DNA of 63,547 nucleotides, filler included, from Collodictyon triciliatum (taxonomy: Eukaryota): NCBI GenBank assembly GCA_043381765.1. It is 11 parts of 11 records of this genome, joined end to end, with 100 filler letters (N's around TTAATTAATTAA, not from the genome) between each part and the next. Parts side by side here need not be neighbours in the genome. Positions count along the whole stretch, not along the records: positions 52,088 to 57,769 come from JBHJMP010005022.1; 10 more parts are not named here. The stretch is one strand, 5' to 3'. Shown here piece after piece: positions 5,693 through 62,652 of the stretch. Every line of letters begins with the position of its first letter. The stretch's first letter is position 1. A model generated the notes under the pieces. That model was not told the DNA's origin and made no database searches. It was given only the letters and a program-made list of their open reading frames with translations. A program made the position numbers and the translations under genes.

Positions 5693-5792
5693 NNNNNNNN
5701 NNNNNNNNNNNNNNNNNNNNNNNNNNNNNNNNNNNNTTAATTAATTAANNNNNNNNNNNNNNNNNNNNNNNNNNNNNNNNNNNNNNNNNNNN
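5693..5792. other. Artificial contig linker (N44-TTAATTAATTAA-N44); first of ten
   Basis: The same 100-nt linker, with stops in all six frames, recurs at 11484, 17273, 23061, 28847, 34633, 40417, 46201, 51988 and 57770. Confidence 0.98.
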
Positions 5793-11394: not shown

Positions 11395-11583
11395 CTGAGC
11401 AAAAAAAAAAAAAAAAACAACGAGAAAAAAAAAAAAAAGAAAAAACAGGAAAAAATTTTATAAAATATAAAAATTGAAAAAATNNNNNNNNNNNNNNNNN
11501 NNNNNNNNNNNNNNNNNNNNNNNNNNNTTAATTAATTAANNNNNNNNNNNNNNNNNNNNNNNNNNNNNNNNNNNNNNNNNNNN

Positions 11584-14640: not shown

Positions 14641-17600
14641 ATGCCAAAAAAATCAATTCGAGTTTCTATGAAAGAGTACCGTTAGGTCAGATAGAATGAT
14701 AAATGAAAATGAAATCACAGCCTGCAACTCACTATAGTATAGAGAGTACATCCTTAAAAATGGTTTTAATATACATTCTTTTCTGACTAGACCTAGTAAG
14801 GTGCACCAAAGTACAATAGTGTATCACATTTTTTATTTCCCTTGAAAGAAGCAGAGAAGCGAGCGAAAGTGGTGTGTGCCATTTATTTTGGCTTGATTAT
14901 ATCGAATATCTTGAGGGACTATGCCACATACTATAGTGTGAAGAATAAATATTAGACATCTGGTTCTATAAAACAAAAATATACTCATTTTTTTCAGCCC
15001 TATTAAAGTCTTCATCTTAATAGGACTCACTCACAGTGTCCACCTGACTGGAGCATGTTGTTGGTATACTATTTTATGTGTGTTTGAAGAGTTTGAGGAG
15101 AGATTTTTACACAGTTTTATAGCTGCATGTTTAGTATGTGTTCATAGCACTCGCCTTCTGCGTGATACTGCATGACTAATTTTTCTGATGTCGCGTGTTA
15201 ACCTATATAGAGACCTTGTCGTAATAGTTGATATCCAAATGCATGAGTTTTGTGGCGCTGTGATTTTTGCTGGAAGTTCTTCCGTATTGGCGCACTTTTT
15301 TTAGTCACTTTCATTTTCAATATGACAAAATATTAGAGGAAATGTTTAAAAAGGTGCCAGTTTATATGATTATAGATATTATTGAGGTCAGTTAGGGTTA
15401 GGGTATTTCTAAAGGTATAGATTGCATATATTCTACTGTAAAGATGCAACGATTTTATAACCACCAAAAATACCACCAAGTGGGTAAAACATAAGCTTAC
15501 TTTAAAGACAGCATACCTATAGCTTTGCATATCAGTATTAACGTGAATAAAAAATTTCATTGAAATTATCTGATGGCATATTTTTGTCAGCCATTCTGAT
15601 GAAAATGGGACGGGACAGTTTGAACGGGGTTTCGGGCTGTATGAGTGATTGAATAAGGATGCGCGTGAGTTATTCGCAAACTATCTGTCTGTTTCATTTC
15701 CACTGTTGACCAATGAAACAGATAGCGTCTGTCGTGGAATAACATAAAAGATGGCAAGAGAATTGCATATAAGTGATGTACTTGTGAACCGAGAAGTGAC
15801 GAAACATATGCAGCACTGATTTTGACCGGGACAATCTCAAAAATTCAACAAACATCCGGCAAATATCTCTCTTCGAACAATTACTTCTCTCTTACAATTT
15901 ACCATGAATTACTTGGTTTTTTAACAGTCTGTATCAATTGAATGGCTCGAGTGGTCATTAGAGAGGTACAGAAAATGCATAAGTTCTATTTAACAATAAA
16001 GTTGCGAGTACCAATTAACCAAATAAGAGCAAAATAAGAAATAAAATCACTCATGTATTTTGACCTTGACTGATATTGAGGAAAATAACTCAAAATAGTG
16101 ACTTGGGGGTATTGTTCTCTGCGAGCTACAAACTCAGGATGGGCTGGTCAAAATTTTGTTATTAAATATGTACACTTTTAAGAAACTACTATAAACGAGC
16201 ATTCACATATGCTCTCGAAACAAAAAAATTTTCCTGACTGAAACATTTAAGAAATAGGAAATATTGCCAGGAAAAAGTCTAGGAAAAAAACTGATGACAT
16301 ATTCACTACTAATACCAAAATAACCTTACGGAAAAACGTTGGAACTCGATTTAATCAGAAAACTACCACTCCTGAGGATAAACCAGAGTTCCGGGCCCAA
16401 CAAGAATCTCGCACCAGATTTGCTGATGCACAAAATTTTTTACTCTAATCTGGCCAGCTGATTAAAAATTGAAGGCCTATATCCCGTATCTAACTGAGGG
16501 TCATAGCATAGATGAAAAGCCTCGAATGGGACAGCAAGTCAACTTAGATTTAAAATTCCTCTTACCTTAAGTGAGCTTCAGAAACTTTGGTGTAGATGAG
16601 ATAATATTTTAAATCAAAAAGGCATGTTCCTTCACGTAGGTTTACCTGAAAAAAGTACAACTATGATGTGCTGCATACCTAGAACCAAAAACTTTTACGA
16701 CATATAAAGGAAATTGTACCACCTGCTGGTCACCAACCAAACTGCCAAACTTATTTCTATAGATAAAGTCAATCATTTAGTCCTAGAATAACTTCATTAA
16801 AGGACCAAAATAGAAGACATCCAACACAAATTGAGGTCTTCATGAAAATAAAGTCCATTAATCGCCAACAAAATTTTCTATTAATTGAAACGTATCTTCG
16901 CCTTTTGATGGATTAAATTGAATAATGCTCTCTCAGAAAGTATGAAAATCAAAGGCGAGGACCTTCCATAAGATAGATAAAAAATAAATCCCACCCGCAT
17001 CCCACAATCGAACGAAGCCCTGGAATCGAAATTTATCATATATAATAAAGAAAAAGAAAAACATATCATTCTTGAGATCTAACCCTGATTTAAAGACTTA
17101 CAAAACACGATTTTTTTTTATTCTTCCTTTCAATTTTGTGCAGGATGGTGGAGATGTTGGCTTTGGTTCGCTAGCCATCGTTTGCATGGACGCTACTTGG
17201 TGGCCGGGTGGCGGAGAAGTAGTCGGTATTCAGGGATTGCATCCTGCGCTTTGGCCTGTAGCCTGGGTCTTGNNNNNNNNNNNNNNNNNNNNNNNNNNNN
17301 NNNNNNNNNNNNNNNNTTAATTAATTAANNNNNNNNNNNNNNNNNNNNNNNNNNNNNNNNNNNNNNNNNNNNTCTCTTTTTTCTCTTTTTTCTCTTTTTT
17401 TCTCTTTTTTCTCTTTTTTTCTCTTTTTTCTCTTTTTTCTCTTTTTTCTTTTTTTTCTCTTTTTCTCTTTTGTTTTCTTCCTTACATTTATTACGTACCC
17501 TGGTGATGCATGGTGCTCAATTCGAAACAAACCGGAGACCTTTGGAATATACTTTGATCTATACATAAAAAGGAGGCTGCAAGGGAGCTAAAATTCACAA

Positions 17601-17755: not shown

Positions 17756-20700
17756 ATGGATATCTCGGAGGAAAAATTATACGACGAACTCACGACTATG
17801 GGTTTTGAGTTTGAAGTAATAGCACTAGCTATCAGCATGTCGCCCAGCAGCCTAGAAGAGGCTGTCAGATATGTAATCAGTCCATAATCCTACATGATAG
17901 TCTGCCACAAAGGCCTTGTTTTACAAAGCAATGACATATACAAACTGTTGCTTTCAAGAGAACTATTTCTTATCTTATTTTCCTTTTTTTTTTTATTTTT
18001 TATTACCTTTTTTCTTTAAAGTGTCTAGATAGGATAAACTTAGCTCAATCAATTGTGGAAAAGAAAAGTGGTAGCAGACCTGCTGAGGCAGCCTTTATTC
18101 AGGCAAAGAAACACGTATCTATCATAAGGATTCACTCATTTTCTTTATTCAAAATATTTCCAAATTTTCCAAAGATTTTTTTATGGAATGTTATCTTAAA
18201 GTGATCCAAATCACACGAGCAGTATAAGTAAAATACTGTGATGATTGCTTCTTAAGTGCACTTTCCCCCCTTTATTATATTCAAAGTGTGCTTAAGTGCA
18301 CTTGATTTATACAAAACTATGAAGAAAAAACGTCCAAACCTAATTTTTTTTTTTCATGAATCGCATGTAACATATCATTTATAAAATTTAGTGCCCTGAG
18401 TTCAAACCAATAAGGGCTGCTGTAAACTTTATTCGCTTGATCTATTTGGCTTATGATAACCCTATCCTACAAAGTATAAAAAATATTAAGTATGTGTTAT
18501 ATTGAGGGAAAAAAAGTGGTGGTAATCAGTACCTTAGGATACAGAGCTATTTTACGAGCATGAAGATGAAAGTGAGGATGAGGATGGAGATCAAGACAAG
18601 GTCACAATTGAAAGTAAGCCTGATGAGTCCACCGACAAGCAACAGTATTTGAGCGATACTGAACCAGAAGATGAGTATGAACCAGAAGAGACACCTCCTG
18701 CTAGGTCCCCAAAAAGGTCATCAAACCCAGATAAATCACCCACCAGTGTATCTCCAGTAAACTGGGCCGCATCTCCTATACCAAGATTGGATGAGGCTCA
18801 CCAGGTCATCGAGCGAGTCAGTGAACTTTGATAATTCTAAATTCTCGCAAATGCAATAATCATAATTCGATGAAGATAAATTCAAAACTTTTATTTACAT
18901 GAAAGTTGTTCGTTGTATCACTTTCTAAATTATTAACTTTCGGGTGAATGTCAAATATGTATAGACGAATGCTCTTCGTCAGCCGTACTCATTAATGCTA
19001 CCAATCCATGCCATGCGTATCATAGATGAGCAGGTATATTTCAATTGGGCACACATATCTCAATATTTGATGATTTCAGAGAATTCATAACCAAGCATGT
19101 AGGCAGACCATATCATATCTACATTCCAAGTCACCAGAACACAGGCATATATGCTGTTGATGCAAAATAAGAGGAGAATAGAGAATATTATGGAAAAATG
19201 CAGCGAAAACATGACTTCAGCATTGAAAGAGTACCTTTTAATTGATTACAGAAAAATAGCTTATTTTAATCCAGGTCGCAAGATATCTAACCCTTAAGAA
19301 TTAGCCACCTAATCTTACCAAAAAAAAAAAAAACCAGAGCAAAGGCTTTGTATGATTCATCTGAAGCCCCTCCATCCGAGGTTTAGTTATCCACCGACAA
19401 AATCGTCGTTCTTAATCCCAACATCCGAAGATTTTTATGCATCATGATTAGGAAGGAAAGGGAAGTTTTATCTAAAAAAAAGTTATTTTGCTCTGCAAAG
19501 AGAAACACATGCTTAGTATGCGGAGACGATGACCCAGAATTATTGTACAAGAATCTAGGCTGTGAGCATGAGTATGATTATATATTGGATCACATTAATA
19601 ATAAATATATTTATAAAGGAACAATCATAAACTTTACTTCATATCATATTGAAATATACAGATTCACAACCAATATTTTTGTTTATTCTTGATCAAATTA
19701 GCGCGTGTTCTGATTGTTGGAGTGCGTATGTGAATGGGAAAGTTGTCGAAGGATGTGTCATAATCACGTGCCCTCAATTCAAGGCAAGCTATTAGTTTGT
19801 TGCACTGACGATGAAGACTAGTTTTTTTTTCTTAACCCCTCCTTATTGATTCGTTTTCTCTTCTGTTATAGTGCGAATACAAGGCAGAGCCCACGTTTAT
19901 TGAACAGTGTATATCCCCGGATGCATTTTTGGTACTTTACTAGACCCACATAAAATGAAACAGTTCATAAAAAAACATTTCTACAAAAGAAACTGAAATA
20001 ATCCTTTATTATATTTGTTAATAGAAATATAAAGAATTTATGCTACGATCTATACTGCAACAAGACCCTAAGATTAAATGGTGTCCAAATCCACGGTGTG
20101 ACCGCCTGTTAGAGGGCATCCAAGTTATGGATGCCACATGCGAATGCGATGAAACATTCTGATATCCTTTCATTACCCACCCTGCACAATTTGTTATATA
20201 TGAATCCCCGTTTGATATATTTGGGCGTTTGCTTTTGTTTTTATCAGCTATAATACAATTATCCTTAACATTTGATTACTCTTAAGTGTAACATGGCTGG
20301 TGGACACTATCCCACCACATGTGATGAATACTCTGAATGGAGCAAAAAGGCATCGACTGATGCTAAAGCCGAAAAATGGATATCCACTCTATATTAGTTT
20401 TACCTTTATTTTCATTTAGGTTGTATACATGAAATTACAAAAAAAAAAAAAACTTTACGAATTATATTACAAATCGAATTGAAGTGCGCTTAATCCAAAA
20501 TAATGGCGGTATATTGAGGCTTAACATAAGAACATGTCCTCATTCTGTAAGAAATGTCCAAAGTGTGGTGTCCAAATCGAAAAGAATATGGTAGGTGTTA
20601 TCCATTTCAATCGCTTTAACCTCCATTCAAATATCTGTGATTACAAGGAAGTTGATATGAATGCCATCTTGCAGATAATTTAAAATCCTTCTTTTATCTA

Positions 20701-22617: not shown

Positions 22618-23160
22618 GGTTCTCTCCGACACTGCGCAGAATTTCTCTGCAGGGGACCTACACGCGCTCTGCCCATACGTGGTTGCGAACAAGAACCCAG
22701 CAAGGATTAAAGATTTCAGATGTTGTTTGTTTAAGATATACCCACTTTCTGTAGAGGCAAGTGCTCAAAGTTGGACATTTACGGGTACGCTCGTGAATAT
22801 AAAAAACATCATGAGGAGGAAAGAAGGGGAAAAGGAAAAGGAGAGAGAAGGGAAATAATAATGAAAGCAGCATATGCCATGAAGAATGAACCACAAACGG
22901 AGTATGGGTTCGGGCATGAAAGATGAAAGACGGTTTTTTTGGGAGTCTGTGTTGGGTTAGATTTCAAGAAGGAGAAGTGAGAGCGCCATAAGAACCATGC
23001 CGATGGCCAGGTTGAGCGTGACAAACTTGCGGTTGTTGCTAAAGGACAAAGCAGTGGGGANNNNNNNNNNNNNNNNNNNNNNNNNNNNNNNNNNNNNNNN
23101 NNNNTTAATTAATTAANNNNNNNNNNNNNNNNNNNNNNNNNNNNNNNNNNNNNNNNNNNN

Positions 23161-28797: not shown

Positions 28798-29237
28798 CAA
28801 AACAAAACAAAACAAAACAAAACAAAACAAAACAAAACAAAACAAANNNNNNNNNNNNNNNNNNNNNNNNNNNNNNNNNNNNNNNNNNNNTTAATTAATT
28901 AANNNNNNNNNNNNNNNNNNNNNNNNNNNNNNNNNNNNNNNNNNNNAGAAAAGAGAGAAAAGAGAGAAAAGAGAGAAAAGAGAGAAAAGAGAGAAAAGAG
29001 AGAAAAGAGAGAAAAGAGAGAAAAGAGAGAAAAGAGAGAAAAAGAGAGGGAAAAGAGAGGGAAAAGAGAGAGAAAAGAGAGAGAAAAGAGAGAGAAAAGA
29101 GAGAAAAGAGAGAAAAAGAGAGAAAAAGAGAGAAAAAGAGAGAAAAAGAGAGAAAAAGAGAGAAAAAGAGAGAAAAAGAGAGAAAAGAGAGAAAGAGAGA
29201 AAGAGAGAAAGAGAGAAAGAGAGAAAAGAGAGAGAAA
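28767..29237. repeat. (AAAAC)n and AG-rich microsatellites flanking a linker
   Basis: Directly visible. Confidence 0.9.
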
Positions 29238-32200: not shown

Positions 32201-34632
32201 TTATTCAAGAAACTCTTGGATAGAAAGAAGCTCGTGAAAGCTTGGACGGTTCTTCGGGTCTGCATGCCAACACTTTTGCATCATGGAGACCCACGATTGA
32301 TTCATGCCGCCTCTTATTTCGGGTCGCAGCCCATTCATCACGTTGTGCTGCAGAGCCATCGCATCCATCCCGTGGTATGGAGAAGCTCTTGCCTCAATTT
32401 CCCACAAAATAATTGCGAAGCTGTAAACATCGGCTTTTTCATCGTATCGTTTTCCTTGCATGACCTTGGCATAAAAAAAATACATGTAAATAAATTACGA
32501 ATAATCCAACATTTTCCTTTTCTCCTTCATGAATTGCAACATAAATCATCTGTTGCAATTAATTTTCATTTCTTTACCTCCGGCGCTAAATATGCCAAAG
32601 AACCGCACTTTGTCATCGTTCGGTTATTCGCTTTGACCCGAGCAAACCCAAAGTCACATATCTTGGCCTCAAAATCGGCAGTGACCTTTTTTAATTTTAA
32701 AAAGTAATTAATGTAATTATATTTCTTCTTCATGAATAAGTCCTGCTCTTATAATTTTGAGTACAATCGGATGGTGAATGCATACCAATATATTCGCAGC
32801 CTTCAGATCTCTATGTAGAATGATTGGTGTCAATGAATGAAGATAGCCCATTCCCTCCGCGATTCCTTTGATGAGTCGTTTCCTGCATGTCAGAGTTCCA
32901 TGAATATTTAATATGATAAAAAAATTCTTCCTTCAGTATTGTCATACTTTTCTGAAGACCCAATTTGAATAGAAGTATTTCTGAGTATCTGAAATAAATT
33001 TCCAAAGTCGACTAGTTCCATGATAATAGCAAGTTTTGGTATGTCTGTGCACGCTGCGATGAAGCGAACGATGTTTTTGTGCTCCAGTTTTCTGGACAAA
33101 ATCCATAAATATTTCATTAATTCAAATCAACTTATCTGTTTTAAGGCCCGATTATATCGTCTCCACACGACAATAAAGGCTTACCTTACTAATGCCACCT
33201 CCGACAAAAAGGATACAAGACTTTCATCTCTTTGGTTCGATATTAATTTTACAGCAACTTTCATCCCCTAAAAGCACAAGAATTTAGAGCTGTTAATCAC
33301 CGTTTTTTTTCTTAGTCTAAGGCGTTGAAGTCTCTTCGAGTAGAGGGGGGAAAAAGTGTTGAAAGTTATAATTATGCTTAGATGTGCCATATTGGATAAG
33401 GGACACATTCGTTTACCTTGTATTGTCCAGAGAAGACAGAACCATAAGAGCCTGTTCCAATCGCCTTTTCGTCCATTTTTATTTCAGCTAAATCTATCTC
33501 CCATCCCATCCTTTCTCTGAGTCGAGCGTCCTTTCTCTTTGGAATGCTAACAGATCCTTTTTCGATATTTTCTCCACCAATAGCGTTCGGGTTGTGAGGG
33601 TTATCTGCGCTTTGCCCAAAGCCAGTCCCGTTCGTTGATTCGGTCATTGTCTTCGTTGATTCACATTTGTATTATGAAAGCGAGTTTGCATTATCTATGA
33701 TTACATTACTCTAAAATTACGTCGATTCTTACCGTGGATATATTGTAAACGCTTCGTTGGGAAAACACATCTCCTCTCCTTTGAAACCTTTTTGGATATA
33801 CCTGATAACAGTATGGATGTTGAATTAAACATTAGGTGAAAGAGGGGAAATAGGAAAGAATAAAAAAAAGAAATAATTTCAAATAATTAGTCTTATTTAT
33901 TTATTTATTTGTTTGTTTGTTTGTTTGTTTGTTTGTTTGTTCGCTTATTAGAAACCTCGTATAGCTGATTGTGATTGCCCTTGAAACTGTCCTTCGAGAT
34001 CTTTTTGATGACACAGTCTGATTCAAAAGCTCGCATCCTGTCCTCCAATTCCTGGAATAAAAAAAAAAGAATTGATTAGAAGAGTTCGACTAACGAAATC
34101 GAGATTCTCCTGTAATGATCGGATGATAGAGATCTAGTATATTTATATAGATAAAACATTTTGAGGTTATTTTATTATTGTTAAAATACAAGATTTTATT
34201 ATAATTTTTGAAGAATAACACACTGTCCTCGTATCATCTGTCATGACAATTTGGCCTCCGTGAGCAAATTTGCTAAGTTTGATTGCACTCGATAAAATCT
34301 AGATATCAATTGTCTCTTCTTAATTATACAAAATGGTGTCGATAACTTCATCTAAACATGAATAATAAATTGTTATTAATATGTGATTTTGAACAAACTT
34401 TCCCGTGATAAATTCTTCGAGAAGTGTAGTCATCATATTTTGATTCACAAATGCCATAGTCAACCCCCTATTTCAACTGTTAGAATTCTCAAATATTAAA
34501 CAAAACAAGTATCCTTTTTTAATAAAAATTTCTACCATTTGAACCCGAACTCCTTTCAAATCACCACATGCAGCAGTTTCAGTATACTTATTTGTCAGGA
34601 GTTCTGGTGGCCATTCTGCTTCATTCAAGAGG
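32201..34632 (-). CDS. Class III nucleotide-cyclase-like domain fused to a TKL protein kinase (5'-truncated)
   Basis: Cyclase half: WPPELL...GVRVQM|GVDYG...AHGGQIVMT. Kinase: WEIDLAEI, GTGSYG, VAVK, HRDLKAANIL, DFG, CGSLAYLAPE, DVYSF, CWHADPKNRPSF. Confidence 0.9.
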
Positions 34633-34844
34633 NNNNNNNNNNNNNNNNNNNNNNNNNNNNNNNNNNNNNNNNNNNNTTAATTAATTAANNNNNNNNNNNN
34701 NNNNNNNNNNNNNNNNNNNNNNNNNNNNNNNNTTTTTTTTTTTTTTTTTTGTTTTTTTTTTGTTTTGTTGTTTTTTTTTTTTTTTGTTTTTTTTTTTTTT
34801 TTATAAAAGATTGGTTTTAAACTTCAAAAATCATGCATAGCCAT

Positions 34845-40205: not shown

Positions 40206-40627
40206 CTCTCTCTTTTTTTTCTCTCTCTTTTTTTTTCTCTCTCTTTTTTTTTCTCTCTCTTTTTTTTCTCTCTCTCTTTTTTTTTTCTCTCTCTTTTTTT
40301 CTCTCTCTCTTTTTTTCTCTCTCTTTTTTTTCTCTCTCTCTCTCTCTCTTTTTTCTCTCTCTTTTTTTTCTCTCTCTTTTTTTTCTCTCTCTTTTTTTTC
40401 TCTCTCTTTTTTTTCTNNNNNNNNNNNNNNNNNNNNNNNNNNNNNNNNNNNNNNNNNNNNTTAATTAATTAANNNNNNNNNNNNNNNNNNNNNNNNNNNN
40501 NNNNNNNNNNNNNNNNAAAAAGAAAAAAGAAAAAAGAAAAAAGAAAAAAGAAAAAAGAAAAAAGAAAAAAGAAAAAAGAAAAAAGAAAAAAGAAAAAAGA
40601 AAAAGAAAAAAGAAAGGAGGAACAAAC

Positions 40628-46200: not shown

Positions 46201-46468
46201 NNNNNNNNNNNNNNNNNNNNNNNNNNNNNNNNNNNNNNNNNNNNTTAATTAATTAANNNNNNNNNNNNNNNNNNNNNNNNNNNNNNNNNNNNNNNNNNNN
46301 ACTACTAATAATACTACTAATAATACTACTAATAATACTACTAATAATACTACTAATAATACTACTAATAATACTACTAATAATACTACTAATAATACTA
46401 ATAACTAATAATACTAATAACTAATAGTTGAAAGGTATTTTTAGTTACAAATGATGTAAATATCTTAC

Positions 46469-48267
46469 TCGAGGTGAATGAACCAAACATAGTTATCCAT
46501 TTGAATTTTGCATCTCTCAAAGATACCTCATTTACTCTATAGTAAATACATTCATTTATATTTACATATATTTGATTATGCACGATAATGATCTTAGTGA
46601 AATATGAAAGACCTGTGCAGAGAGCCTAAAGTGTAAACAATATTATCTTGAGGTCCTTCTAATAAATTCACCTGTATTTCTTTCAGTCTTATGTTCCATT
46701 TTTATTCTTTTTTTTTGTTTTTGCTTTGTCTATATGCCTCAATCTCTTCATTTACAATCCCATTATTTTATACTGTATGGTTTCGTTTGATACAGATGCC
46801 TATAATTCACCATTTCGATACAGATTATTCAAAATTTAATACCAAATCATGAAATAGTCTCCCTAGGAGTGTTTTCTGATTCCTATAAACTTCTTTCTTG
46901 TCATGCTCGGGAGTGATTATGACATCAAAATAGCTCGAATGAGCCCTGGGATGCTGAATCTGTGAATGAATAGCGCGAGAATATGAGACAGTTGCTTTAG
47001 CATGTGGAAATGTAGCTAAATGTAGAAGTATGCATGCGAAAATGATGAACAGGTTTCATGAACTTTTTTTTTTGAGGTTCACAAACACAGCATTACCGAT
47101 AACACATAAAAATATTATTTAAAAGTGGCAAAACATAGAAACAAAAAATAAAAAATAGAGGCCAAGAGATTAGAAGGATAGAAAAGGATAAAGAAAGATA
47201 TAGAAATGAAAGACTTTTAATGTGTTATATCATGAGAACATGCAATAGTAAATATTCCTTCTCTAAAACCTGAATAATTTTCACTGTTCCTTCACTCAAA
47301 ACTTTGAAAAGAAAATTTGCTGGGGCTGTGCGTCGACCTGAGTCATAAACACATCACGCCATAAAGAAAAAGAAGAAAAAGAAAAAAAAAGAAAAAGAAG
47401 AGAAAAAAAAGAAAAAAAAGAAAAAAAAGAAAAAAAAGAAAAAAAAGAAAAGAAAAGAAAAGAAAAGAAAAGAAAAGAAAAGAAAAGAAAAGAAAAAAAA
47501 GAAAAAAAAGAAAAAAAAGAAAAAAAGAAAAGAAAAGAAAAGAAAAGAAAAGAAAAGAAAAGAAAAGAAAAGAAAAGAAAAGAAAAGAAAAGAAAAGAAA
47601 AGAAAAGAAAAGAAAAGAAAAGAAAAGGAAAGAAAAGAAAGTTTCAATTAATGGATATGAAAATGTATAACATTAAAATGATAATATATTAAAACGAATA
47701 ACACAGAATTAATTAAAAATATTTAATATAGGAAATAGTTAAAATTACATAAAACAATAAATCAAAGGAAATAAATAGACCATGTAAGAGATAAAGTATG
47801 GACAAGGTAGAGTCAAAACAGAATAAGATATTGCAAAAGATATTACATATGTAACAACATAAAGAAGAAAAAAAAAGGAGAGTAAGAACCAAGCAAAACA
47901 GACCAGAGGCAACAATGAGGTCGGGCCAGCCCTCCTCCAGACCAACGAGCTCCTCGCCCAGCGCCGGCCGAACAACACCACAGGACACAACCGCCTGCCT
48001 CAGAGGCTGCTGCAGCCCGAGGAGCGACCACCAGGCTGCACCGAGAGCCGCAGAGGGAGACGCTGCAGGCGGGGCAAACAGACGCGCAGACCACCGCAGC
48101 AGAAAAAGATGCGCTGCGCTGGGCAGCAGTCGAAACAGGCCGCGCGGCAGACACGTGATGATCTGCACACGCTCCAAGGCAAGGCGCTCCACAAAGCCCA
48201 GGGATTGATTCAGCGCACCCGCAGTCCCGTCGCTGAGGATCCACGCGCTCTTTGGCAGACGCTGCAT
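46469..48267 (-). CDS. ELM1: Mitochondrial fission protein ELM1 family (3'-truncated)
   Basis: AWILSDGTAGALNQSLG...WPDLIVASG|RRTAPA...IIQ|IQHPRAHSSYFDVIITPEHD...|...TLGSLHR are hallmark ELM1 motifs. Confidence 0.88.
47362..47640. repeat. Intronic (AAAAG)n microsatellite within ELM1
   Basis: Directly visible. Confidence 0.95.
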
Positions 48268-48631
48268 CGGTGCGGAAAGGCTTGGCTTGGCTTGGCTTGG
48301 CTTGGCTTGGCTAGACGGCTCAGACAAGAACGTTTGCGATCACAGTCCTGCCTCTCTTGACCCAACTGCTCCTCCTGGCGTCTTCTACTCTCCCGTTGTG
48401 GGTGGTTCGCTTTCGCTCTTTATACATACGTATGTATCTGCATATGTGTCTGTGTTCTTTCTTGTGCTCTTCTCACCGCCAGCCGGGATTGAGATGACCG
48501 CGGGCAGGGCGAGGCCTTGCCTTTGGGTGGCTTCATACGATGATTGGGGGCAGCGTGCAGCAGGCCGATGTAGAAGGAGAACGAAAGAAACAATCACGGG
48601 GGAATACAAGGGGTGGACGCTGTGGGCCCGG

Positions 48632-49275
48632 CTAATCCTCGAAGCAGAGTGCGCCCAAGGACAACTCTATCCCTTGGCCTTTTACCGCATGGGTTTCGCC
48701 CTGCCTTTGGTTGAACTTCACCACGATGATGGACGTGTTGTCGTGGCTGTCGTTCAGGAACGCACGGTCACGCAGTTTGTACGCGGCAACGCGGGCATCT
48801 GTGCAGCCCCCCAGGATTTCGAATGCCATCTCGTCGTTCACTGTATCCCACAGCCCGTCACTTGCGAGAACTAGCCATTCGTCCATGTCATGCCTGGCAT
48901 AAGTCAGAGATACAAATGAAATCCATCAACGTTATGAGCAATATGCGAATATTGGGGTCTCATTATAATCAAGCAGGAAAATAAGCATGGAATCAATTGT
49001 CACTAGCATCAGACCAGGTCATTTGCTTACCTCCGGATTGTTTCGATTGATGGCTCCCACGTGACGAACGGGTGCAGGTAGAGGTCTCCAAAGCATCTGG
49101 ACATCGAGAGTATCCCAGAGACACGGCCGTCCTCGCTAACAGTGCCCCCATGTGAGCGAATTCTTGCGTGCTCATCTGGAGACTTGAATACACAAACACA
49201 TAGTTTATTTACATATTTTTGAATTTTTGGCACTTGTTTTCCTGAGAAAGTAAGCTGGATGCATGGAATGGTCGA

Positions 49276-49346
<71 letters not shown>

Positions 49347-49473
49347 CCATACAAATGGCTTGTGGTCGGTTGAAATACGACGAGCCCCGTCCCGACGAAA
49401 TAAGACGGCTCTCGAATCTCCCGCATTTGCACAATATATGCTCTCCTCGCCAAGCTGAAGGGAAGATGATTCG

Positions 49474-49510
<37 letters not shown>

Positions 49511-51987
49511 TCGAAGCTCACTGGCCTCCATCACAAGGCAGAGTATGCCATAATACATTACAACATGAAAAGATTTAGCTGGTTGACTGTGTATATTGCT
49601 CACTAAAATGGTCAGCGCTGTACTACCCGAAGAGCTGATGAGCGAGCTGTTAATAGCCTGGCTCATGTCTTGGTATGACCTGATGAATCGATTGAAAGGT
49701 TAAACTACTAGGGAGTAAATAGGACAGGAGAGGCATAAAGAAATAAAAAAAAATCTCGGGAATTACTTCCGTAAGGCGTTCTCAACAACACCCAACATCA
49801 AATTCTGGCCAAGAATCTGTCGTTTAATTTGAATCCATGAGTTTGTGCGGTTTTGGAATGAGGTTTGGAATGCCGAAGTAATGATGGAGTCATTCATATT
49901 CACTCACCACAGGCATCCGCTCTCTTAGCAATTGAGCTGTTTCGTGACCCCCATGACCTTGATTTGATGGTATCAAAATCGTGACTTGAATATGTGGTTA
50001 CAAACGAAACAAAGGAGATGAGGGGACATATAGTAGTTATGTACCGTCGAATACTGCAAAAAAGGTAAACGTGTCGCTGAGTCTCGGAACTATGGAAATG
50101 TAATCTTCCATAAAGCTTTTTCTTCCCATGCACGTGACGAAAGCGACCTGGTGGTTTTTTATTGCTTTAATGGGAAAGAAATTAACAGGCGAGTATATAT
50201 ACAATGAATACGCAAAAATAAGTGTCGGTCGCACCCTTACCTGCACATTAAGAGATGAGGGAATCTCCAGCGCCTCCTCGTGGAGACTGAAACTTGACTA
50301 CATATTCGCATTTATTATCAAAATAGTAGAATAATTTATAATATATTTCTGCAAAAATTAACAAAAGAAGGTATTAATTATACAACGCAGTCACCTCGTT
50401 GAAGGATGCTGCAAGCTTATCAGAAACAGCTATCGTGCTTAATGATAATGGGTTGTGCGATAAATCAAACGTCCTACATACCATAGTGATTTGTCAATAA
50501 AAATGATGAAAAGAGAAAAGAAAACGAGACATCTTAAAGTCTCATCCACTCGAATGTCCCTTCTTTTTTTCTTTAGTCGATTATAATATTTACATTAGCT
50601 TCTGGTTCGGGATTATTGTGGAAGGTAGACTGGATATTAGATTTGATGAGAGGTTCTAAGATAATTATGAATTAGCTATTACTTTCATATTTAAGAGCTT
50701 TTAATGTAATTTTTGTAAAAAATAATTCAACAATGACATTACCAAATGAATGATTTGGTTTGGTTTCAGCCAGACACTCTCTGGAAGCGACGTTAGTTTG
50801 TTTCTTGACAAATCAAGGGCTAATATGCCATTAGTGAACTGTGAATAATGTTGGGTGTTATCTGCGTAATTAAAATATTATCAGGCTTACTAGAAACCCA
50901 TGTGATTGTCTCCATTAGATGGTAAATCTCGTCGCTATTGCACAATGTATCCGCCTGATGTTTATTACGTGAGAATGAAATTATTAATTTTTTACTGATG
51001 ATTTTTTTCACTAAAATATAAATAATATATTATTACCATCCACATAGACTTCATATGTCGGAGGTTTGTCACCTTGGACGGAATGGTCGATAATGGATTG
51101 TGCGCTGTAAATAAAAATAAACATCAGCCGAAAGCGAAGAGCGATGATGTTTTTGAGTGAATATGACATGAATCTTACATAAATGAAGCTCTTGAATGGA
51201 CGCTAGTTTTCCAATACTGTCGGGCAGCATCGAGATGGAATTGTACGATAGATATAGGCGCTTCAATTTTTGTAACCTTATATTAAAGATCATGATAGTC
51301 GTTAGTTTAAAAAAGCTTAAAAAAATTAAACATTATGATATAAATGGAGGTATTTTATTTTCAGATTAAAAATGAGTATGAGATTGGAAAATAAAATAAA
51401 AGAGTAAATACGAGTAAAAAAAAAAAAGAGAGTAAAATGTAAATGTACATAAATTACTACTTACTCCCCAATAGAAAATGGCACATTCGATATATTGTTG
51501 GAGTGAAGATTCAGGGTGAGGAGATTCGTCAGCTCTGAAATAGATTTGGGAATATCCATCAAGGAGTTCTCGCTGACATTTAGTTCCTACAATAAATGGA
51601 AAAGAGGAAATAAATGGCGTATAAGAAAATCGACAATACACCATGTAGAAATACAAAAGTTGAATTCATAATCACTTTAAAATTTTAAAGAAAGTACGTT
51701 GAGGTTTGCGAGTCCTCCAAGCTCTTCTGGTAAATAGGATATCTTGTTACGGGACAGGTTTAGCTTGTACAGTCTATCCATCTTGGCACACATTTGCTCT
51801 GGTATCTTGGCTATTTCGATTCAAGGAATGAGCGTGAAAATCCATCAGATTATGAATTCATGAGAAAAAAAAAGGGAGTTGTTCGAAGTTTTTTTTAAGA
51901 AAATAAAATAAAATAAAAACAGCTCACATAATCCTCCAGCCGTGATTGACACAATGGACAACGTCGAGCCACGGGTAATTTCATCGC
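48632..51987 (-). CDS. LRR plus PP2C (PPM) phosphatase (5'-truncated)
   Basis: About eight LRRs are followed by MED, FDG|HGG, NAGDSR, SRCFGD, LASDGLWD and SHDNTS, so the metal-binding motifs are intact. Confidence 0.92.
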
Positions 51988-52087
51988 NNNNNNNNNNNNN
52001 NNNNNNNNNNNNNNNNNNNNNNNNNNNNNNNTTAATTAATTAANNNNNNNNNNNNNNNNNNNNNNNNNNNNNNNNNNNNNNNNNNNN

Positions 52088-52198
<111 letters not shown>

Positions 52199-52199
52199 C

Positions 52200-55100
52200 C
52201 AGAGTCTTCTGCACGGTCACACCTTTTCACTTTGTTAGTTCTGAATATTCCTTCGGCATCCTTACATTTCTCCATTTGGGTGTTGAGCTTGGTATATTCC
52301 AAACGATGAGATTTTTTTAACTCCTTTTTTTTATAAAAAAAAAAAAAGAAGAAAAATCAGTGAATACCATGAAAATTTGTTCAAGGTTCTAAGGGGTTTT
52401 CTTCAAAGTAAGAATAATATCCGAGCATAGGACTTCGCCTTTCCTCACTTTTTCGTATTTTCAATTCTGAATAGCTTAGAACCTGAACATAGTTCAACTG
52501 CTCTCCTTTCACCATACAGCTCTCCAAGGTACATATTTTACCCATAATCTCCGAGTAGACCTTCATGATGTTTCATTAATACCAATATATACAACGGATA
52601 TTGGCATTCAGTGGGATATACACAACCTGGTCAATTATACTTAAAGTACGAATTCGCTGAGACTCTTTGACGCTTTCCATCATGGACTCGTCATACGTCA
52701 AAAAATTATTTGGGGTGCATATATCAAGAAGTAAAATATCCTCAGAATGGAAGACAGCAATCTAATGGCGAATAAAAACAACAATTGAAAGCAAGAGCAT
52801 CAAAAGTATAAAATAAAATAAGGAACATCGTACAATCTCGATATGGTAGATGTAGTGATGCCAATATACTCACCATATTTGAGTATCTAAAGTATATGTT
52901 AAAGTTCCTGAATAATGAGTGCTCGCATCCAGAACTTCTGCTGAAAATATTATTGTTGTAGAAACATAGTTCCAGGAATTTTCCAAAGGATAGTTTCCAT
53001 GCGTCTAAAACAATACATTTTTTAACTTTTTTTTTTTTATGATTCTAATATATTATTATGGATTCGATTAACAGAAATGGCGAACCTTTCGACAGATGAA
53101 ACCACGGAGTTTTTGTGCGACAAAGACAACAATATGTACATGTTTGAATACCATCCGATATACCACTTAATGGGAACGTTTCTACCCCGACATTTAGCCG
53201 AATTTTGTTGTGAAGAAACGTTTTTATGTGGGAATAAACCTTTTCTGTACAAGAAGGGCGAGAGCATACACGGTTACAATCGAAGCAAGACCTTTCCAAG
53301 AACTCGCCAATACTGAAATCCTGCCACAGTAAAAATAATAAAAATAATTACTTTAGATAAGAAATGCTGATTGTTTTCATTTATAAACACGTGTGAATCA
53401 ACCGATTCTACTTATTTTCTTGGTTATCTCTGATAATCTCGTAACCAGAAAAAAAGTTCATACCAATTCGTGGTAGAATTCCATATCTACAACGGAGGGT
53501 TCTTCGCATAAGAAACTAGTTTGGGATGCATAGGAAGACGTAAGAAATGAAACATGTTGGCAACTTAAAACAGTTTCCGGAGACAAGATAGCTATGCGCT
53601 CATCCAAATTCAAATATTTTCCTCGTAATTCGAGCTCATTGACCATATCTTTGTAAACGGAGTGATTTTCTTCAGCGTCAGAAGGACAGCCATGCAACTT
53701 GGCAATTTTTCTATCGACTAAAAACACAGACGGATGACTGGACATTTGAGCTTCAACATTTGGCCGACAAGAAAAGGGCTTCGGAAAATCTGTATGCGGA
53801 GATATTGAGTGGCAAACAGAATATGAAGATGTCGCATCGTCTAATTTCGCAGTTTCCGATTTCTCATGCATTTCTGCATAAGGGTCCATTTCCAGAATGG
53901 CAGCAATATCTGACTTTGTGAACTGACAGCCAAGGTTCTGAATGAAAGCCGACTCATATGCAGCATTCTGCATTGCGAGAATGCATAACTACACAATGAG
54001 GGAATACATTAAAATTTCATACAGCATATTGAATCACATACCCTGCATCATGGAAGTGTGATTCCATTATAAATTATCTTACCCGGAGTATTCTTTTTAC
54101 TTGGCTCAATTTTTGGTTATTTTCACCCCTAAGAATGACGTATGAACCAGATTGCGTAAATGAGCCATGAAAGTATGAAACTGTTTTCTTGAGGCCATCA
54201 CCCATTCGAATGGTCTCGCTACGAAACTCTCCACAATTCCATGAGGATGTGGAGCCTAATTTATCTTTGGAATATGATTCTTTAGCACATGTATGCATAT
54301 ATTTGAATTTCAACACACCATGATTCTCTGTTGATAATAAATGCTAAAGCAGATAACTAACCAAAGCTTGAGTAGACGGGAGTGTTCAGATATGAATGAA
54401 GTCTGTCCATCACTTTCGATTTAGTATTCAATATGACTGTGATGTTATGCTGAAGAAATAGTTCAACTGCAATGCCAGATACAGCTTTCTCCACGATGAC
54501 AATATCAGGAGATGCATCCACAATCTTATTCACAGCAGACTTGAGGTATTGATGCTAAATTGCATGGAAATATTCAACATCGCATTACAAGTAAGGAAAG
54601 AAAGAGAAAAGTGTGACTTGAAATCATACGTGTGGAACCAAGGAACTAATCGTATGAAGTTCGTTCTCATTTGATTCATATATATGATAGTCAAGATAAA
54701 ACGTTGTCATTGTCATTATTTTATAGTTGAGTAGATTATGTTTTGGATAAAAATATGACCATAATCGGAGAATATAGAAAATTCTTTTTAATTATATTTT
54801 TGTAATCAAGGATACTCAATTGGGCAGCGGAGCAATAAAACTTTTGGGTTATGTATTTGTGTGTTCATCTTTTTGTGCGCTATATGCTTGCTAAAAACAA
54901 ATCCTTCGTGGCTTTTTGAGTCACCGATGGTACCCCCGGGAATTATTTTTATCTGGTGGTTTTGATATTGATAAATTTAATATTATCAAAAAAAGTTAAT
55001 ATTCTATACATGAGTGTAACCTTGACAAGTTCCCTCAAATTTTGCACCAGATTGGTGTCCTTGAAATTTTTTATGTTCGCAATAGCAGACTGCGCGAGAA

Positions 55101-57590
55101 ATATGACTTGATCTATTAGGATATTCAGTCCAAGAAACTAGTTCTTTCGTAGAGGATTTATTGCTCATAAATAATTAATTAAAAAAATCCAAAAACAAAA
55201 AAAAAAACTACGTAAGATAAAAAAACCTGTCCAGTTTCGATCGAGGGAGAAATGTTTGACAAGTTGAGCAACCATCCCTTTAATGTGATATTCGTAGTAT
55301 CCCTGAATTCTCTCCAGACTTTGTATGCTTTTGGCTATTCAAACGTTAGCCCATTTTACAGAGGCATAATTCTTTGCACTGAGTCGAAAATAACAAGAAG
55401 AGAAAAATAAACTACAAACAGTCAAGGATGGGCGAGCTGGCGTCGAATTTCAACATTCCTTCGATATCTACACGATTTTTTAGACTCATTTTCAATCATA
55501 AAATATTGAGCCATACAAATGAGCGCCATAAAGAAATAACTGATTAATGGGAGTCATACTAAACAAAGATTTTGTAGAGTTTTTCCTTATATGAAAGCTT
55601 GATGTTCTCAATGTTCGGCTGCTCGGAAAACGAGTTGTCTCAGAAAGAGAAGGATTCCTATTCCTTTTTGTGACCTTTCCTTCAGAAACGATGGCTTCGT
55701 CACGGTCACTTGGGTTTGGTGGCTTAAATTCGCTATCGTTTGATATTATGGGTGGATATATTTGCGGCTCTGTCAAAGAGTTCACCCCGTCAAACTCATC
55801 ATCGGGACATTTTTCAGATTCACTGAGCCCACTGTCATCTGTTGAACTTCCATAAATATAGATTCCTTCAAAATCTTCATCTTGCTCATCTTGCTTGCCG
55901 TCTAAAATGATATTTTCTTCTTCTAAGTCAACTATTGGTATAATTGTGACCGGTTTATTGTCCTCAGCGCTATTTGTGCCCTAGGAAGAAAATTCCATTA
56001 TTATCCTAATGATGACTATTTTGCAAATATTCACCGTTGTCAAGAATAGTTCAAACGGTAATGTAATTGAAAGCATCACGGTCAAACACTTGGTATTATA
56101 ATGTGAATTTATTACATCTGGATTGCGAACTGATGTGCTATCCTTCTTAAAATCAAACCAGCCCTTGACATCGATGTTTCCTAATGAATATATTTGACTC
56201 TTTTTTTTTTTTTGCATCTGTAGAGTATGATGAATGTATCAAATATGATCATTACAAACCGATGACTTGTGCTTGTTGGGTGCTGGGAAAGGGATAATGA
56301 AATGATTTAGGTTTGCAAAATATTCAATTAATTGTTTTTCAGAGAATTTAGAGCTGTTGTAAATATTCGCATGAAACAAAACTAAATAGAAAAATCCTAT
56401 TAACTTCTCTAAAATTTTGATAATCAAATATATACAAATACAAAAATTGGTGCACCATTGTTCGTTAGCATTTGTTTTACACTCTTCAAAAAGACTCTGG
56501 CAGATAAGGCACACGAGAATAGATGACATCGACCCAGACTGTTCCGAAGCTGGAGATTTGATTTGTATCGTCGTCTCTACCACACATCTTATATAATATT
56601 TTTCACAGCTTCCATTATACAAACGATAATTTCTTCGCTGAAAGAAAAAAAAACATATGAACGAACGCAATCTTGGTCCGATGGTACATGATATGTATCA
56701 ATGCACGAGGAAATGATCACTATTATGCAATTTGGTAATGATGCTTACTTGGAACAGAATATATGGCCACATAGACGACAGTGGTGTCTGCGTCGAAAAA
56801 GATGAAACTCGCAATCACAGTTTTGGCATATGAGTGAAATTTCATCAGAGACCCAAAAGCCCTAAGTATTAAATGGTTTATTATGAATTCATTAATAAAA
56901 ATATAATCAATCAAAAAGAAAATATCAGAAGTCATCGAAAGCAGAACCACGAACAAAAATCACAAAAAAATTAAACAAAAAAACCGTGTGTCACTAACCC
57001 TACGAATATCGCCTGTATTCGTGATGTCTTTCAACCGACTCATTATCGTTTCTATCGACAAAGGTTCCTGAATAGCTCTTGTAGTCCCAGGTGCGATTGA
57101 AAATGAGCCTGTGCATTCACTTGAATTTGAAGAATCACTGATCTGACGTGGTGGTAAATCACACGCCAGGAAGCCTCTATCGTTCTCCTCCGTTGGAGGT
57201 GATAAAGTCTCGGCTACATCCTTTGTGCTGGTAATGTGGGATTGACGGTTGGCGTCAGAGTAAGGACTCAAAGGAAGGTTCTCCTTTCGGTTCCCATTTG
57301 CAGGCTCCTTTCTGTCTTCTTCATTTGATGTAAAGAGCCTGGTGTGTAAGTTGAAGGTTGTCGGACTGAGAAGGTTATCCAGAGATTGAGAATGGAGCAG
57401 CCAACTTGAATCGAAAGTGAGAAAAATGAAAGAAAAACTGAAGGAATTGGGGCTAATCTCACTTTCAATTAGTTTTGATTGTATGCATAATTTGGTGGTT
57501 CATTTAGAGTTTAGCACAATGTACGCTACCTGGAAAAAAAAGTTGATTGCTGCTTCATTTTGGACTTTGGTGCCTCAGGGAACATTAAGC
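52200..57590 (-). CDS. PIKFYVE: PIKfyve/Fab1 PI3P 5-kinase: FYVE, CCT-like and Cys-rich regions; kinase domain lies beyond the contig end
   Basis: FYVE: WVSDE...CQNC...FRRRHHCRLCGHIFCS. CCT-like: IPGGTIGDS...GFVFSKHIAHKKM...NPKVLLL, PDIVIVEKAVS, ILRG...VKRILR. Cys-rich region: AWKLSFGKFLE. Confidence 0.92.
54682..54815 (-). other. U12-type intron with non-canonical GT-AT termini (134 nt)
   Basis: 5' end GTATCCTTG; branch site TCTTGAC 8 nt before a CATAT end. Removal gives PIE|YESNENELHTISSL. No phase-compatible AG follows the branch site. Confidence 0.75.
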
Positions 57591-58030
57591 CTAGAACCAT
57601 AAAAAAACAATAAAAACGATAAAAACAATAAAAACAATAAAAACAATAAAAAAAACAATAAAAAACAATAAAAAAACAATAAAAAACAATAAAAAACAAT
57701 AAAAAACAATAAAAAACAATAAAAAACAATAAAAAACAATAAAAAAACAATAAAAAAAAAAAAAAAAAANNNNNNNNNNNNNNNNNNNNNNNNNNNNNNN
57801 NNNNNNNNNNNNNTTAATTAATTAANNNNNNNNNNNNNNNNNNNNNNNNNNNNNNNNNNNNNNNNNNNNTGTTGTCCTTTTTATTCAAAACTTGCGACTT
57901 GCAGCGGGGTTCGTAGTTCGGTATTTTGTCGTCCAGAACGTCAGAAGCCGAGGTGTGAACTCTGAAATCTGCCTTTTACTTGTGTTATCACAACCTTTTC
58001 TTAAACATGAACCCTGCCGTCTTTTTCAGG

Positions 58031-62652
<4,622 letters not shown>

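Follow-up and report, generated by a model that had tools for sequence, protein, structure and literature searches.

A probable U12-type GT-AT intron in a PIKfyve/Fab1-like gene of Collodictyon triciliatum

Introns that are removed as U12-type introns, begin with GT and end with AT form a small class that has been described before. Sheth et al. 2006 (Nucleic Acids Research, NAR 34:3955) list in their Tables 2-3 four such non-canonical introns in human and three in mouse, two of which are conserved between the species, and count 33 non-canonical U12 introns in human, corresponding to 4.92% of all U12 introns. Experiments cited in the same paper found AT-AN and GT-AT ends to support productive U12 splicing. 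For the minor spliceosome, Turunen 2012 gives an optimal branch-to-3′ distance of 11-13 nucleotides (nt) and describes no distinct polypyrimidine tract. On published evidence, then, this spliceosome accepts GT-AT ends and selects its 3′ site through a short spacing from the branch site. In Physarum, 1,014 of 20,899 U12 introns are reported to be non-canonical, with GT-AT accounting for 17% of the 1,014 (10.1101/2020.10.12.336362); the same source gives TTTGA as the motif around a branch A at -10 to -12, and reports that, of 3,648 introns whose 5′ site is perfect, only 20 have the classic CCTT[G/A]AC. Here we analyse a 63,547-nt stretch of DNA from Collodictyon triciliatum (NCBI GenBank assembly GCA_043381765.1, filler included), hereafter the window. 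We regard the segment 54815..54682 on its minus strand, with a probability of roughly 0.8, as a genuine U12-type GT-AT intron, located in phase 2 in the Glu codon of a conserved [ILV]-E-Y motif within the chaperonin-like domain of a PIKfyve/Fab1-like gene.

The removal of this intron is recorded in X1, a public sequencing run in which roughly one third of the words sampled from 53100-56000 are present. Contigs of X1 placed on 52250-57450 show 13 joints in all, and in 12 of these the skipped bases read CT..AC on the plus strand and hence GT..AG on the minus strand. X1 therefore contains spliced transcripts of a minus-strand gene, and the strand is fixed. The thirteenth joint connects 54681 to 54816, skipping 134 bases that read AT..AC on the plus strand and GT..AT on the minus strand. 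No sliding of this joint is possible ('both' = 0), no letters are inserted between its two sides, and the shorter side is 52. The complementary DNA (cDNA) contig that carries it runs across a 52-nt micro-exon into the following exon: its 15-letter loose end at 54630, once reverse-complemented, reads as the exon start at 54554, which means that the GT-AG intron 54629..54555 is gone from the same molecule. That the RNA loses 54815..54682 exactly at the predicted boundaries is confirmed. A preliminary description, made from the DNA alone, had placed GT-AT boundaries at 54682..54815 and expected a messenger RNA in which ATTGA is joined to ATATGAATCA; the X1 joint 54816/54681 bears out the first, and the second is seen in the spliced cDNA contig. 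Several X1 contig ends carry letters that we take to be a template-switching cDNA adapter.

On the minus strand the intron (134 nt, 23% G+C) reads GTATCCTTG...ATCTTGACTATCATAT between the flanks ...CCAATTGA and ATATGAATCA; with slashes marking the splice junctions, its context is ...CCGCTGCCCAATTGA/GTATCCTTGATTAC...(134 nt)...AACGTTTTATCTTGACTATCATAT/ATATGAATCAAATGAG. The terminal dinucleotides are GT...AT in the assembly, with the boundaries fixed by the RNA joint. The 5′ splice site, GTATCCTT (54808..54815), matches the U12-type consensus [G/A]TATCCTT at 8 of 8 positions. A branch-site-like ATCTTGAC (54690..54697) agrees with TCCTTGAC in 6 of 8 positions, the putative branch A falling at 54691, intron position -10. 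The AT at the 3′ end (54682..54683), given by both the sequence and the RNA joint, lies within CATATATATG, in which four AT ends follow the branch A at distances of 8, 10, 12 and 14 nt. The AT at 10 nt is the one used and the sole one in frame. Indeed, when all AT, AG, AC and AA ends 8-14 nt from the branch A are considered, the frame is kept by the used end only. As for AG ends after the branch site, the first, at a distance of 26 nt from the branch A, is out of frame, and the second, at 46 nt, is in frame and as an acceptor would cost 12 residues including EY. Read unspliced, the donor gives GAG TAT CCT TGA (E Y P stop), and the frame shuts 3 codons past the junction. The preliminary description had anticipated a TGA on read-through, the wrong phase of the next AG and the loss of EY, and each of these holds, the loss of EY belonging to the in-frame second AG.

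We infer the U12 type from the motifs at an RNA-defined, in-frame junction, together with the non-AG end and published minor-spliceosome behaviour. The perfect GTATCCTT, a CTTGAC with its A at -10 and the AT end thus speak for the same assignment as was originally made. The other 12 introns of the gene (11 from joints and one from the loose end) all have AG at the 3′ end and lack a U12-like donor. Taken alone, the motif evidence is only marginal. RTATCCTT occurs 12 times in the window, compared with 5.74 +/- 2.39 in shuffles, and none of 100 shuffles reaches 12; at least 2 of the 12 sites lie within coding exons. Two such sites on the minus strand, at 33216 and 28512, were rejected as introns, as they are found within the open coding sequence of a kinase gene and a leucine-rich repeat gene, respectively, and the 8-mer alone therefore over-calls U12 donors here. 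A donor followed 40-200 nt downstream by a branch-like 8-mer was found twice against an expectation of 0.39, a count of 2 being reached in 28 of 500 Markov simulations. The weight of the U12 motifs comes from their exact placement on an RNA-defined, in-frame junction.

The GT-AT intron would accordingly be a substrate of the minor spliceosome, as judged from its motifs. In such a scheme U11 and U6atac would bind GTATCCTT at the 5′ end, and U12 would pair with ...TCTTGAC, leaving the A at -10 bulged. The 3′ cut would then be made at a dinucleotide a fixed short way downstream, with AT being taken here because AG and AC are absent within range. As to the splicing mechanism itself, nothing new comes from this intron.

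Comparison with the described systems shows both shared and distinct features. The mammalian GT-AT U12 introns reported in DEADC1 and SLC24A6 likewise have a U12-type 5′ site, a GT start and an AT end, and make up a rare minority class, whereas they interrupt other genes; the present intron belongs to a non-mammalian, AT-rich organism with short introns. The non-canonical U12 introns described for Physarum are similar in that GT-AT is among the dominant pairs and the branch A is 10-12 nt away from the 3′ end, and the A at -10 is within the range of -10 to -12 used for that organism. The branch motif reported for Physarum is TTTGA, whereas the two U12 introns here have canonical-looking sequences, TCCTTAAC in one and TCTTGAC in the other. 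Canonical U12 GT-AG introns share the 5′ site, the branch-site logic and the short branch-to-3′ distance, and differ in the last base, which is G in those introns and T in ours. GT-AT U12 introns being already known, this intron adds an example of a rare subtype and is not surprising to a specialist. Its interest is modest, and comes from the RNA support for a GT-AT minor intron in a conserved housekeeping gene of an organism that is neither a mammal nor Physarum; our literature search found no paper joining PIKFYVE with a minor intron. For annotation, a gene finder limited to GY-AG and AT-AC introns would go wrong in this PIKfyve gene where the EY motif and the 52-nt micro-exon are encoded. 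Additionally, since GT..AT mirrors AT..AC, a splice-aware aligner can put the joint on the wrong strand.

The host gene is PIKfyve/Fab1-like on the evidence of a FYVE domain, a chaperonin-like Cpn60_TCP1 domain after it, and colinearity with homologues, so that the original assignment to PIKfyve/Fab1 stands as that of a like gene. It is carried by the contig piece 52088..57769 (JBHJMP010005022.1). The Pfam FYVE match falls in one window exon (E 8.8e-12, 45.4 bits, over the cut-off of 27.8). The residues encoded by 54955..54816 match Cpn60_TCP1 profile positions 166-210 (E 1.5e-6), and those of the exon 54381..54554 match positions 238-291 (E 1.1e-6); these two intron-flanking exons score 27.6 and 28.1 bits, each under the Pfam whole-protein cut-off of 34.3. 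An exhaustive HMMER search with an 82-residue exon returned 73 proteins with E no higher than 0.001. P0001, the best of them, is 49% identical, has 1704 amino acids, and contains FYVE, Cpn60_TCP1 and PIP5K domains. With P0001 as the tblastn query, the gene was traced from 56858 down to 52222, ending at residue 1185 of 1704. The window lacks a PIP5K kinase domain, as the contig piece stops at 52088 and the gene presumably runs off this low-coordinate end before the domain is reached. A further protein homology search with the exon 54360-54554, directed at longer proteins, gave no match.

The upstream coding exon (54816..55112, minus strand), bounded by the RNA joints 55112/55227 and 54816/54681, ends ...LLLRCPI plus GA, in phase 2 in the Glu codon. 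This codon is finished by the micro-exon (54630..54681, minus strand, 52 nt), which encodes YESNENELHTISSLVPH and is covered by the same X1 contig. The downstream GT-AG intron (54555..54629, minus strand, 75 nt), supported by the loose end at 54630 and by its sequence, has a U2-like donor, GTATGATT. The next coding exon (54381..54554, minus strand), which starts HQYLKSAVNKIVDASPDIVIVEK..., was located by tblastn with P0001 and by its Cpn60_TCP1 match. The spliced translation ...HNPKVLLLRCPIE/YESNENELHTISSLVPH/HQYLKSAVNKIV... stays open and reads ...LLLRCPIE/YESNENELHTISSLVPH/HQYLK... across the region. In blastp comparisons with homologues of more than 1200 amino acids, the spliced product is colinear with 35 of 36, and the residue right after the junction is Y in 31 of these 35 and F in the other 4. 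The lone miss, P0010, was matched by the HMMER query near its N-terminus (residues 99-167) and may lack the region around the junction. We also looked for the homologous intron site in 80 metagenome loci related to the upstream exon, and none (0/80) has an intron there. The alignment is a single uninterrupted high-scoring segment pair in 78 of the 80; in L045 it is cut by the locus end after query residue 54, with the site still spanned, and L063 shows by eye a frame slip, not an intron. These loci are probably distant and intron-poor, and hence say little about the age of the intron.

Several points weigh against reading 54815..54682 as a genuine U12-type GT-AT intron. The joint is present on one contig at a depth of 4.3, and that X1 consists of RNA reads was only a guess. 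The same contig has an extra letter at 54912, within five consecutive A, and would be thrown out of frame by it; we take this letter as a probable contig error because the genomic frame agrees with homologues. The depth in bins 54512-54859 is accounted for fully by the exon parts, so the intron is without read cover and the T at 54682 comes from the assembly only. The branch match CTTGAC is imperfect (6 of 8), and its A is slightly too close to the 3′ end for the published optimum of 11-13 nt. Pyrimidines make up 0.65 of the positions -25..-3, which is within the range of 0.35-0.78 seen in the 12 U2-type introns of the gene, and this feature is therefore non-discriminating here. The donor GTATGA, close to GTATCC, is found in three of those U2-type introns. 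Finally, Rfam models gave 0 matches on the window.

One alternative, to which the missing read cover lends itself, is a plain U12-type GT-AG intron, in which the T at 54682 would reflect a strain variant or a wrong base in the assembly and the true sequence would be CATAG. We consider this explanation improbable, though marginally the likeliest of the alternatives that we weighed. The assembly is fragmentary (11 pieces of ~5.7 kilobases (kb), plus three other N-runs), and X1 and the window disagree at several exonic sites, which points to more than one strain or to a close relative; no such mismatch is listed for 54630-54900, and the exon letters beside the joint are the same in contig and window. 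A specific G-to-T error at one base should occur at ~1e-4 or less in a polished assembly, by an assumed rate. As GT-AT represents ~0.5-1% of U12 introns in published sets, the odds favour a real AT, and the genomic T at 54682 is probably correct. An exact-pattern scan of the metagenome contigs for the intron 3′ end gave 0 matches, whether the critical base was set to T or to G.

Slightly less probable again, in our assessment, is a rare U2-type GT-AT intron cut by the major spliceosome, with the U12-like motifs being coincidental. There is a precedent for such introns in human and mouse DGCR2, where Sheth 2006 reports a GT-AT intron that is conserved and has a U2-type 5′ site. It shares its terminal dinucleotides with the intron here; according to the same paper, however, it combines an optimal U2-type 5′ site with a polypyrimidine tract, whereas ours has a U12 5′ site. 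The U2-type donors of the PIKfyve-like gene are loose, with GTATGA used three times, but these three have G and A at +5 and +6, where GTATCCTT, with its 8 of 8 match, has C at both. The co-occurrence of the motif pair is marginal over chance, as the 28 of 500 simulations indicate, yet the A of CTTGAC lies 10 nt from the observed cut. [quoted passage not shown] The weakest alternative, a joint produced by reverse-transcriptase template switching, contig mis-assembly or a plus-strand antisense AT-AC intron, is highly improbable: it could draw on the single low-depth contig, on GT..AT being the exact reverse complement of AT..AC, so that the joint prints as AT..AC on the plus strand, and on the caution of Larue and Roy over mirror-image classes (the CT-AC case), but microhomology is none ('both' = 0) where template switching requires some, a neighbouring minus-strand GT-AG splice is on the same contig, the joint regains an open frame colinear with homologues, and the plus-strand reading begins ATATGATA, not ATATCCTT, with no branch motif near its end.

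A second intron with U12-type features is present on another contig piece of the window. This AT-AC intron (20162..20279, plus strand, 118 nt) interrupts an IBR/RBR-type gene in phase 2 within the IBR domain. It has the form ATATCCTT...TCCTTAAC plus 10 nt, starting with ATATCCTTTC and ending with AC. The exon upstream matches Pfam IBR (E 1.3e-5), and read-through meets a TGA at the junction. The spliced product regains a CPNPRC...CEC...CLKC...HYPTTC series, which we take to be the Cys/His pattern of the domain. This textbook AT-AC intron suggests that the organism has a minor spliceosome. The preliminary description had spoken of two AT-AC introns, with branch-to-end distances of 8 and 10 nt; 20162-20279 corresponds to the one with 10 nt, and the other was sought in the window and not located. 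AT-AC candidates at -22739, -30610, -51742 and +25514 were rejected, having no coding support or lying inside exons.

A third intron (62223-62315, plus strand, 93 nt), in a WD40-like gene, has a perfect GTATCCTT donor and a frame-preserving GT-AG splice. The sole branch-like motif near its 3′ end is ~20 nt upstream of that end, and the intron is a possible U12 intron. The window tally is therefore two clear U12 introns, one of them non-canonical, and one possible, in ~62 kb of gene-dense contigs. A broader proposal, which we consider unlikely, is that C. triciliatum would be the second such lineage after Physarum, with a minor spliceosome to which non-AG/AC 3′ ends are routinely acceptable and with an unusually high frequency of minor introns, while an ancestral TCCTTRAC-type branch site is kept.

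Some further observations concern the PIKfyve-like gene and its surroundings. Runs X2 and X3, whose RNA nature is likewise guessed, gave nothing at the intron. At 55176-55208, many 31-letter contigs from all three runs pile up to a summed depth of up to ~215, each with 3 mismatches; the pile-up probably stems from low-complexity sequence of other organisms and not from expression of the gene. The donor at 56259 is joined to two acceptors in cDNA contigs (56164-56259, minus strand), skipping 79 or 96 bases at depths of 4.5 and 4.6; the acceptors lie 17 nt apart, so one form is frame-shifted. Past the exon ELKKSHRLEY...KVKR, the segment 52088-52345 (minus strand) consists of a (TTA)n-type simple repeat followed by the contig end, and the C-terminal third of the gene, presumably with the PIP5K domain, is outside the window.

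The window as a whole is made up of 11 separate contig pieces of 5678-5692 bases, nearly size-ordered, with N44-TTAATTAATTAA-N44 spacers between them at 5693-5792, 11484-11583, 17273-17372, 23061-23160, 28847-28946, 34633-34732, 40417-40516, 46201-46300, 51988-52087 and 57770-57869. Genes on the two sides of a spacer are therefore not genomic neighbours. In the piece placed beside the PIKfyve piece (46301-51987, minus strand), translations inspected by eye show leucine-rich repeats and then PP2C-like sequence.

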